Positions 16,071-19,159 of a DNA stretch of 64,000 bases are shown here, piece after piece. Position numbers and translations under genes: made by a program. Each line of letters starts with the position of its first letter. Position 1 is the stretch's first letter. The notes under the pieces are model-generated. The model saw only the letters and a list, made by a program, of their open reading frames with translations. It did no database searches and was not told the origin of the DNA. Origin of the DNA: Escherichia coli (GTDB lineage Bacteria > Pseudomonadota > Gammaproteobacteria > Enterobacterales > Enterobacteriaceae); NCBI RefSeq assembly GCF_003334355.1, contig NZ_QOWP01000020.1; one strand, given 5' to 3'.

Positions 16071-17444
16071 TTATTTTAATAACCGCACCCGGCACGTTTT
16101 TCCTTTAATCTTCCCGCCCTGTAACTGTTTCCATGCTTTATGAGCAACAGCCTGACGGACCGCGACATAGACATGCGCCGGATGCACGGCGATTTTGCCA
16201 ATATCTGCGCCATCAAGCCCGATATCTCCTGTCAGTGCACCTAATACATCACCCGGGCGCATTTTGGCTTTTTTCCCGCCATCGATACACAACGTTGCCA
16301 TTTCTGCTTCCAGCGTCGCAATGGAACTATTAGCTGGCGGCGTTTGCCAGTTAAGTTTTATCTGCAACATGTCAGAAATGATATTGGCCCGCTGTGCTTC
16401 TTCCGGAGCACAGAAACTGATCGCCAGACCGCTATTTCCTGCACGAGCTGTACGACCGATGCGATGTACATGAACTTCAGGGTCCCACGCCAGCTCAAAG
16501 TTCACCACCAGCTCAAGCGATTTAATATCCAGACCACGCGCAGCAACATCAGTCGCGACCAGTACACGGGCGCTACCGTTAGCAAAACGTACCAGGGTCT
16601 GATCGCGATCGCGTTGCTCCAAATCGCCGTGTAATGACAATGCACTTTGCCCTACTTCATTCAGCGCGTCGCAGACAGCCTGGCAATCTTTTTTGGTATT
16701 GCAAAACACCACGCAAGAGGATGGCTGATGCAAGCTTAATAACCGTTGCAACAGAGGAATTTTGCCTTTGCTGGATGTCTCATAAAATTGTTGTTCAATG
16801 GGTGGCAAAGCATCTGTTGAGTCAATTTCAATCGCCAAAGGATCGCGTTGCACTCGTCCGCTGATTGCAGCGATGGCTTCCGGCCAGGTTGCCGAAAACA
16901 GAAGCGTCTGTCGAGATGCAGGCGCAAAACGGATGACATCATCAATGGCATCGCTAAATCCCATATCCAGCATGCGGTCGGCCTCATCCATCACCAGCGT
17001 ATTCAACGCATCCAGTGATACCGTGCCTTTTTGCAGGTGATCCAGCAAACGCCCCGGCGTTGCCACGATAATATGCGGCGCATGTTGCAACGAATCACGC
17101 TGCATACCGAACGGTTGACCACCGCACAACGTCAAAATTTTGGTATTTGGCAGAAAACGCGCCAGCCGACGCAATTCACCTGCCACCTGATCCGCCAGTT
17201 CACGCGTAGGACACAGCACTAAAGCCTGGGTTTGAAATAGCGACGCATCAATTTGCTGTAACAAGCCGAGGCCAAAAGCCGCCGTTTTGCCGCTGCCGGT
17301 TTTCGCCTGCACGCGAACATCTTTTCCGGCAAGGATCGCCGGAAGCGCGGCGGCCTGCACCGGCGTCATGGTTAAATAACCCAACTCATTAAGGTTCGTG
17401 AGTTGGGCGGGAGGCAAAACATTCAGGGTAGAAAAAGCGGTCAC
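16071..17444 (-). CDS. dbpA: ATP-dependent RNA helicase DbpA
   Basis: 457 aa; DEAD-box motifs (GSGKT, DEAD). Confidence 0.95.
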   Translation of the reverse strand: MTAFSTLNVLPPAQLTNLNELGYLTMTPVQAAALPAILAGKDVRVQAKTGSGKTAAFGLGLLQQIDASLFQTQALVLCPTRELADQVAGELRRLARFLPNTKILTLCGGQPFGMQRDSLQHAPHIIVATPGRLLDHLQKGTVSLDALNTLVMDEADRMLDMGFSDAIDDVIRFAPASRQTLLFSATWPEAIAAISGRVQRDPLAIEIDSTDALPPIEQQFYETSSKGKIPLLQRLLSLHQPSSCVVFCNTKKDCQAVCDALNEVGQSALSLHGDLEQRDRDQTLVRFANGSARVLVATDVAARGLDIKSLELVVNFELAWDPEVHVHRIGRTARAGNSGLAISFCAPEEAQRANIISDMLQIKLNWQTPPANSSIATLEAEMATLCIDGGKKAKMRPGDVLGALTGDIGLDGADIGKIAVHPAHVYVAVRQAVAHKAWKQLQGGKIKGKTCRVRLLK

Positions 17445-17473
17445 AATCTATTCTCGTGGTCATCGACGCAAAG

Positions 17474-17647
17474 TTAGCAGGCGCGTATCCTCGCAGATCT
17501 ACGCTCACGATGCGACAATTTAATCGGTTCTTCATCGGGTGGTGGGTCAGGCATGGGTTGCGGGCGAGGGATCGGATCGGGCACTGGAACAGGATCGCCA
17601 GGAATCGGTTCAGGGACAGGAATTTGCAAATAAATAAGTGTCGTCAT
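17474..17647 (-). CDS. Small proline-rich ORF (57 aa) between dbpA and fnrS
   Basis: Hand-translated MTTLIYLQIPVPEPIPGDPVPVPDPIPRPQPMPDPPPDEEPIK...; below the track cutoff; expression not established. Confidence 0.3.
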   Translation of the reverse strand: MTTLIYLQIPVPEPIPGDPVPVPDPIPRPQPMPDPPPDEEPIKLSHRERRSARIRAC

Positions 17648-17704
17648 ATTTCCCTCTGGTCATTGGGTGGACTCTTAAAGGGTAGACGCTGATAAATAAC
17701 AGGC

Positions 17705-17826
17705 AAAAAAAAGCCGACTCATCAAAGTCGGCGTCGTACGAATCAATTGTGCTATGCAGTAATTCAAAAAAGGAAGTAAGACAATATGGAGCGCAACGCC
17801 CATCGCTTGACGTTGCATTCACCTGC
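17705..17826 (-). ncRNA. fnrS: FnrS small RNA (FNR-activated)
   Basis: Reverse complement reads GCAGGTGAATGCAACGTCAAGCGATGGGCG...GCCGACTTTGATGAGTCGGCTTTTTTTT, matching recalled FnrS including its terminator. Confidence 0.85.
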
Positions 17827-17921: not shown

Positions 17922-18926
<1,005 letters not shown>

Positions 18927-19159
18927 TTATTTTGTAGTCTAGCCTTCTGGCCCTGTTACGCAACATCTCATCACCCCATTACCCTGAAATGATTAATAAA
19001 ATTCTGTCTAAATTGAATACAAAAAGCAAAATGCTTTTCCGTATACAAACCGTGTGAAGTGTTAAATAGCGTCTATCATTATCAGAATTATCTGATCATA
19101 TGACGTGGCTTTTTTGCGATCGGATAGCAACAAAAATTGATAAAAATAACGGGATCTCA

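Follow-up and report, generated by a model that had tools for sequence, protein, structure and literature searches.

The proline-rich open reading frame between fnrS and dbpA in Escherichia coli: ynaL, a small-protein gene with a peptide-level core and a nucleotide-invariant tail

In Escherichia coli, the sRNA gene fnrS and the protein-coding gene dbpA are separated by a gap of 264 nt, which holds a short, proline-rich open reading frame (ORF) on the minus strand. The window analysed here, i.e. the whole stretch of 64,000 nucleotides from contig NZ_QOWP01000020.1, shows the following arrangement around this ORF:

16071..17444, minus strand: dbpA, as given in the ORF list.
17442..17455, minus strand: start of dbpA, with a GTG codon (17442-17444) and a weak ribosome-binding site GAGAA (17451-17455), 29 nt 3′ of the ynaL stop codon.
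17474..17647, minus strand: ynaL coding sequence, with an ATG start and 57 codons plus TAA, encoding MTTLIYLQIPVPEPIPGDPVPVPDPIPRPQPMPDPPPDEEPIKLSHRERRSARIRAC.
17652..17656, minus strand: ribosome-binding site GAGGG of ynaL, 4 nt 5′ of the ATG, as read from the sequence.
17709..17826, minus strand: fnrS sRNA gene (Rfam RF01796, 134.8 bits), the constant upstream neighbour of ynaL.

The original prediction had pointed to a 57-codon minus-strand ORF at this position, had called it unlisted and had weighed a real small protein against a chance ORF in GC-rich intergenic DNA. The ORF is there as described, beginning with ATG, running for 57 aa and including the peptide quoted at the time. It is indeed too short for the ORF track, but it is not unlisted in general, being annotated as ynaL in RefSeq. 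The DNA, for its part, is not especially GC-rich, as its G+C content amounts to 53%, and the bias towards C is a consequence of the proline codons. By itself, the length of the ORF does not exceed chance expectation because other frames of the same 264 nt harbour further mechanical ORFs, with lengths of 78, 48, 41 and 32 aa; what sets ynaL apart from a chance ORF is the combination of conservation, annotation and published detection.

The product of the ORF is identical to RefSeq WP_001296046.1, the ‘proline-rich small protein YnaL’, and matches the Pfam-A family PF23677 (‘Protein YnaL-like’) from end to end (residues 1-57 on model positions 1-57 of 57, E 2.2e-40, 136.8 bits). A search of NCBIfam, which has no YnaL-specific model, returned only compositional matches to TonB, internalin and similar proteins, all of them far under the cut-offs. 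Among complete E. coli genomes, megablast recovered ynaL in 5393 of 5426 at 95% identity or more, and the feature beneath the matches is annotated as ‘ynaL: proline-rich small protein YnaL’ or ‘protein YnaL’.

Experimental support is already in print: the exact 57-aa sequence, together with its K-12 coordinates between fnrS and dbpA, was given by VanOrsdel et al. (2018, PMC6001520). In that study, chromosomally epitope-tagged YnaL, with the tag fused to the minus-strand frame, gave an immunoblot band in E. coli K-12, and the same sequence scored positive in a tetracycline ribosome-profiling (TetRP) screen, in which most positive proteins were present at high levels (PMC6001520). Ribosome-profiling or small-proteome data had been named as a check on the prediction, and these published results favour a real small protein. 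The band obtained with a tagged fusion does not prove, however, that the native YnaL peptide is stable. The published record assigns no function to ynaL, which it characterises solely by its adjacency to dbpA; a literature search found no paper other than PMC6001520 that discusses it, and the locus goes unmentioned in the main texts of the papers on tetracycline ribosome profiling and on EfpL. On this basis, we are confident that the ORF represents ynaL, an already annotated and free-standing gene that is genuine and is translated into a small protein. With its annotation, its Pfam family and its detected product, ynaL is a known gene, and it can serve as a positive control in which a genuine small gene was spotted from raw sequence.

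Comparative data bear on the same question. Conservation of the reading frame had been the second check put forward, and it likewise favours a real protein: Escherichia species, E. albertii among them, retain the frame together with its ATG and ribosome-binding site, as do 70 of 80 species genomes from the Enterobacteriaceae and, beyond this family, Erwiniaceae. A protein search yielded 162 YnaL homologues, all of them with PF23677, from genera including Escherichia, Citrobacter, Salmonella, Enterobacter, Klebsiella, Raoultella, Kosakonia, Leclercia and others. At the nucleotide level, 80 species-level loci of the Enterobacteriaceae were fetched using DbpA as an anchor, and 70 of these carry a YnaL-like ORF immediately 5′ of dbpA in the same orientation, in almost every case with ribosome-binding site and ATG; the site is of the GGAGG type and sits at the equivalent position 5′ of the ATG in nearly all species loci. 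In the alignment of the encoded proteins, the N-terminal ~15 residues vary and are followed by a near-invariant DPVPxPDPIPRPQPMPDPPPDEEPIK(L/M)S. Two features of the window fall within this part:

17513..17593, minus strand: core under selection as a peptide, residues 19-45, PVPVPDPIPRPQPMPDPPPDEEPIKLS, delimited by pN/pS and entropy.
17534..17548, minus strand: DPPPD motif, codons 34-38, with PDPPPD invariant or nearly so in the alignment (A1).

Over residues 19-45 in 65 species, pN/pS is 0.14 in the ynaL frame, whereas the remaining two sense frames give 2.6 and 7.0, and the entropy at codon positions 1, 2 and 3 is 0.21, 0.11 and 1.13 bits, respectively. None of the 65 sequences contains an in-frame stop, and length changes keep the frame; apart from synonymous changes, for instance, the core of E. 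coli E69 departs from that of the window by nothing but an in-frame deletion of 33 nt. Since the variation falls mostly on third codon positions and pN/pS is low, the core is selected as a protein, with the acidic X-Pro repeat (~residues 16-41) under purifying selection on its amino acids. Towards the Erwinia-type (L083) and Mixta (L086) loci, the core is at least as conserved as ZntB, with identities of 84% and 76% as compared to 69% and 68% for ZntB, and YnaL ranks among the more strongly conserved E. coli small proteins that have no assigned role.

These patterns also allow two other readings of the locus to be judged. One holds that the frame is open by chance and that only a DNA or RNA element is conserved, be it the dbpA promoter, its 5′ UTR or the flank of fnrS. 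Such a reading would account for the nucleotide-level conservation of the last third of ynaL, which persists without the ORF in Kluyvera, and several other mechanical ORFs do overlap the region. Yet it is at odds with a core that varies almost wholly at third positions (1.13 vs 0.1-0.2 bits elsewhere in the codon), with the low pN/pS, with the lack of in-frame stops, with in-frame length changes next to a conserved ribosome-binding site and ATG, and with experimentally reported translation (PMC6001520); moreover, folding of the 3′ tail together with the leader of dbpA yielded no RNA structure. We consider a chance frame next to impossible. The other reading places the real gene on the plus strand, either as the 78-aa ORF at 17456..17692 or as a Gly-rich frame that shares its wobble positions with ynaL. 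The latter, wobble-aligned antisense frame reaches a pN/pS of 0.17, which is the expected mirror effect of selection on ynaL, but is interrupted by stop codons in 7 of 65 species, and the frame of the 78-aa ORF has a pN/pS of 1.49 and stops in 8 of 65. Informal inspection saw no conserved start signal on the plus strand, and it was the minus-strand frame that carried the published tag. The stop codons rule out antisense coding at ynaL, leaving a plus-strand gene with a negligible probability.

The length of the ORF varies as well. The X-Pro repeat region (17585-17617) grows and shrinks in frame, as seen in E. coli E69 (L004) and in the proteins P0131, P0151 and P0053; some E. coli ynaL genes carry deletions of 11, 21 or 27 codons, and one Salmonella YnaL has a 10-residue duplication that brings it to 70 aa. 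Short direct repeats within the ORF, e.g. CCTGTnCC and AATCGGTTC, make slippage plausible. A few frameshifted variants occur as well (P0137, P0133, P0132 and P0123).

The last third of the gene follows a different pattern of conservation, which centres on two blocks:

17510..17527, minus strand: invariant block 1, CCGATTAAATTGTCGCAT (codons 41-46, PIKLSH), with a third-position entropy of ~0.
17480..17500, minus strand: invariant block 2, AGATCTGCGAGGATACGCGCC (codons 50-56, RSARIRA), with zero entropy at all three codon positions.
17487-17495, minus strand: extended -10-like sequence TGCGAGGAT within block 2, recognised by its sequence.

The four codons between the blocks vary at all positions. 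In a dozen lineages, a stop codon follows right after PIK(L/M)S(H)R, and block 2 continues unchanged downstream of it. Kluyvera has lost the ynaL promoter region and the Pro-rich core altogether and still keeps both blocks before dbpA, with most of block 1 preserved and block 2 unchanged. In Cedecea and Dryocola, the aligned sequence at block 2 reads TGCTAGAAT or TGCTAGACT, again an extended -10 motif. Folding of the 3′ tail together with the dbpA leader by RNAalifold revealed neither structure nor covariation (consensus fold of -4.3 kcal/mol, 0 compensatory pairs). Judging from sequence, we infer that E. coli-type ynaL reads its last third from DNA whose primary role is that of a promoter-like element upstream of dbpA, with TGCGAGGAT as its putative extended -10; the tail blocks look like a dbpA promoter or a regulator-binding site. 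Such a predicted dbpA element would account for the nucleotide-level invariance of the tail and for the fact that, in several genera, an earlier stop can cut it off from the ORF.

Two further observations concern this part of the gene. The deletion just mentioned is seen in five loci from Kluyvera and a related isolate (L071, L072, L076, L077 and L080, at ~2380-2500), in which fnrS is present, the promoter region and core of ynaL are missing and the tail blocks remain. It indicates a lineage-specific loss of ynaL, which is dispensable in at least Kluyvera. A SecM-like arrest sequence, considered on account of the ‘IRA’ in the tail (cf. GIRAGP), was rejected as these codons belong to the nucleotide-level element that exists without the ORF.

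Upstream of ynaL, comparison across species brings out a candidate promoter:

17679..17706, minus strand: putative ynaL promoter, with a -35-like TTGCCT (17701-17706), a 16-nt spacer and a -10-like TACCCT (17679-17684), recognised by cross-species conservation.

The -35-like hexamer overlaps the T-tract of the fnrS terminator. The hexamers TTGCCT and TACCCT/TACGCT are conserved, and 66 of 68 loci separate them by exactly 16 nt of variable sequence; the Erwinia-type equivalent TTGCCA-17-TATGCT passes a promoter scan (L083). A default scan of the fnrS-ynaL interval in the window returned nothing, the E. coli hexamers (7 of 12 consensus positions) being under its threshold; the assignment is therefore owed to conservation of the hexamers across species and not to the scan of the window. 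We infer that ynaL is transcribed from its own σ70-type promoter, whose -35 would overlap the fnrS terminator. In two Citrobacter loci (L022 and L032, sp. R56 and NCU1), the spacer is 9 nt shorter (7 vs 16 nt) and the ynaL ORF is intact; a 7-nt spacer would break this promoter geometry. Downstream, no terminator-like hairpin was found on the minus strand of the ynaL-dbpA interval in the window, and because nothing of this kind separates the two genes, transcription in E. coli-type genomes likely runs from ynaL on into dbpA. Dryocola, on the other hand, has a terminator-like hairpin directly after the ynaL stop codon.

The interval is also crossed by a 47-aa mechanical ORF (MQRQAMGVALHIV..., 17675-17818, minus strand) that runs through fnrS. 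Gene callers elsewhere fuse this ORF to ynaL (P0147, 106 aa), and choosing the first ATG has the same effect in L021 (107 aa). The fnrS-spanning ORF is an annotation artefact rather than a gene.

The original prediction had placed the ORF between dbpA and fnrS. The position is right, but of the two neighbours it is fnrS, and not dbpA, that is stable. In the E. coli-type arrangement, the order is zntB-fnrS-ynaL-dbpA, converging on ttcA. A profile search covering 1.84 billion representative proteins extended the family to divergent members, by name from Phytobacter, Scandinavium, Erwinia and Mixta, whose sequences end in ...DPPPH(R/M) and not in ...PIKLSHRERRSARIRAC. In the loci from Phytobacter, Mixta and Scandinavium (L082, L086 and L087), zntB-fnrS-ynaL converges on ttcA, and there is neither a same-strand gene downstream of ynaL nor dbpA. 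The Erwinia-type locus L083 reads zntB-fnrS-ynaL-ttcA-dbpA; Dryocola (L073) has ynaL directly after fnrS and ~1.85 kb upstream of dbpA, probably in the order ynaL-ttcA-dbpA as well, and Atlantibacter (L075) carries ynaL at a distance of ~2.4 kb from dbpA, again upstream and in the same orientation. By contrast to this variable position of dbpA, each of the 29 ynaL-bearing loci scanned with Rfam has fnrS as the immediate upstream neighbour of ynaL. Thus, ynaL travels with fnrS rather than with dbpA. The ttcA-dbpA segment is rearranged among Enterobacterales, and the C-terminus of E. coli-type YnaL appears to have arisen from this rearrangement.

Another short ORF is found further upstream, at 18919-18966 on the minus strand. 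It comprises 15 codons just upstream of zntB, is listed in RefSeq as ‘protein YnaN’ (gene label ydaN) and may encode a leader peptide of zntB.

What does YnaL do? Proline makes up 28% of its residues, and an acidic core (pI ~4.05) is joined to a basic tail (pI ~11.8). AlphaFold predicts an extended chain with neither helix nor strand, with a pLDDT of ~90 over residues 21-40 and a pTM of 0.22, and a profile search of the PDB with YnaL gave no match at E values up to 1. The reading that we prefer, to which we would give slightly better than an even chance, is that YnaL works in trans as a free protein, with an acidic core that is rigid, extended and polyproline-II-like and serves as a docking peptide for a partner. 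DPP, PPP and PPD are strong EF-P-dependent stall motifs, a finding that reportedly goes back to Peil in 2013 and Starosta in 2014. Given DPPPD and the run of X-Pro bonds, synthesis of YnaL would be expected to be slow and EF-P-dependent, and the conservation pattern, with a variable N-terminus and ~26 conserved residues that end at the polyproline motif, would also fit a function of the nascent chain or of stalling.

The latter point leads to the main alternative, namely that ynaL is mainly a cis-acting, hard-to-translate sensor ORF that controls dbpA. Ribosomes would slow down, stall or drop off at the X-Pro run and DPPPD whenever EF-P, Pro-tRNA or Mg2+ is limiting, and the uncoupled, C-rich mRNA would let Rho terminate, so that less transcription would reach dbpA or, in Erwinia-type genomes, ttcA-dbpA. 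This would resemble mgtL and mgtP, leader ORFs that depend on Pro codons. The arrangement of the genes is in keeping with this proposal: in 70 species, ynaL precedes dbpA in the same orientation at a distance of 27-63 nt and no terminator intervenes, it also precedes dbpA in L083, L073 and L075, and the products of both ttcA and dbpA act on the translation machinery. The conserved residues end at the polyproline motif, as a stalling function would have it, and the mRNA of the core is rich in C and poor in G (42 C vs 19 G in 99 nt). There is also precedent, as loss of EF-P causes Rho-dependent termination on polyproline mRNAs with rut sites (PMC5021804) and proline together with acidic residues pauses or destabilises ribosomes in MgtL (PMC12856214).

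However, Phytobacter, Mixta and Scandinavium keep ynaL with nothing downstream on the same strand, Dryocola places its hairpin right behind the ORF, and the conserved block upstream of dbpA survives in Kluyvera after ynaL has been lost. The folding analysis described earlier, with its weak consensus and lack of compensatory changes, offers no conserved alternative RNA structure that would connect ynaL with the start of dbpA; a high C content is simply what Pro codons entail, and the likeness to MgtL is compositional only (E 0.085). Finally, the published band represents the tagged full-length product, and most profiling-positive proteins are abundant (PMC6001520). On balance, a mainly cis-acting role is unlikely.

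A more specific version of the same idea would make YnaL a gauge of translation difficulty, in which the invariant acidic X-Pro core with its terminal DPPPD would be under selection for a nascent chain that slows or destabilises ribosomes at limiting EF-P, Pro-tRNA or Mg2+. In E. coli-type genomes, Rho-dependent polarity would then set the share of transcription from the ynaL promoter that arrives at dbpA. We regard this version as distinctly unlikely. The DbpA helicase acts on the peptidyl-transferase region of 23S rRNA during 50S assembly. If the gauge were real, it would amount to a feedback loop in which performance in peptide-bond formation feeds back on a ribosome-assembly factor.

Whether YnaL acts in trans, as we favour, or in cis, the present findings refine the design of ynaL mutants in three respects: the linkage of the gene to fnrS, the two layers of conservation within it, with selection as a protein confined to residues ~16-41, and the overlap with a probable dbpA promoter. 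Importantly, deletion or 3′ tagging of ynaL may disturb the expression of dbpA, with the tail overlapping the probable dbpA promoter element.

Compared to known systems, the ORF is the same gene as the published ynaL (PF23677, WP_001296046.1, PMC6001520), with an identical 57-aa product and the same position between fnrS and dbpA, and no difference sets the two apart. As for ribosome arrest peptides of the SecM/TnaC type, which are defined by an arrest of elongation or termination at a given codon, only DPPPD and the conservation pattern of YnaL are suggestive of such behaviour. Proline-rich antimicrobial peptides such as apidaecin, oncocin and Bac7 bind the ribosome tunnel and are short, strongly cationic peptides of animal origin with PRP/PxP motifs. 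YnaL contains PIPRPQP, but its core is acidic; the comparison provides a lead only.

The leader ORFs mgtL and mgtP of Salmonella mgtA and mgtCBR (PMC3641672, PMC5299641, PMC6460261; reviewed in PMC12856214) are, like ynaL, short ORFs rich in Pro and acidic residues upstream of a gene on the same strand, and both would be expected to be sensitive to EF-P, Pro-tRNA or Mg2+. Yet YnaL is three to four times longer and conserved over ~26 residues, and ynaL has a promoter-like element of its own, lacks a conserved attenuator structure and persists without the downstream gene; the similarity to MgtL is not significant. A leader sORF would always accompany the gene it regulates, which does not hold for L082, L086, L087 and Kluyvera, and would be joined to it by alternative RNA structures or a terminator, neither of which was found between ynaL and dbpA.

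The polyproline spacer of TonB (PF16031; NF008084) differs from YnaL as well, since YnaL has neither a membrane anchor nor a C-terminal domain and matches TonB by composition only (Pfam E 0.75; NCBIfam 20.8 bits against a cut-off of 315). Both do contain charged residues within an alternating X-Pro run, for which the shape of a rigid and extended rod would be expected.
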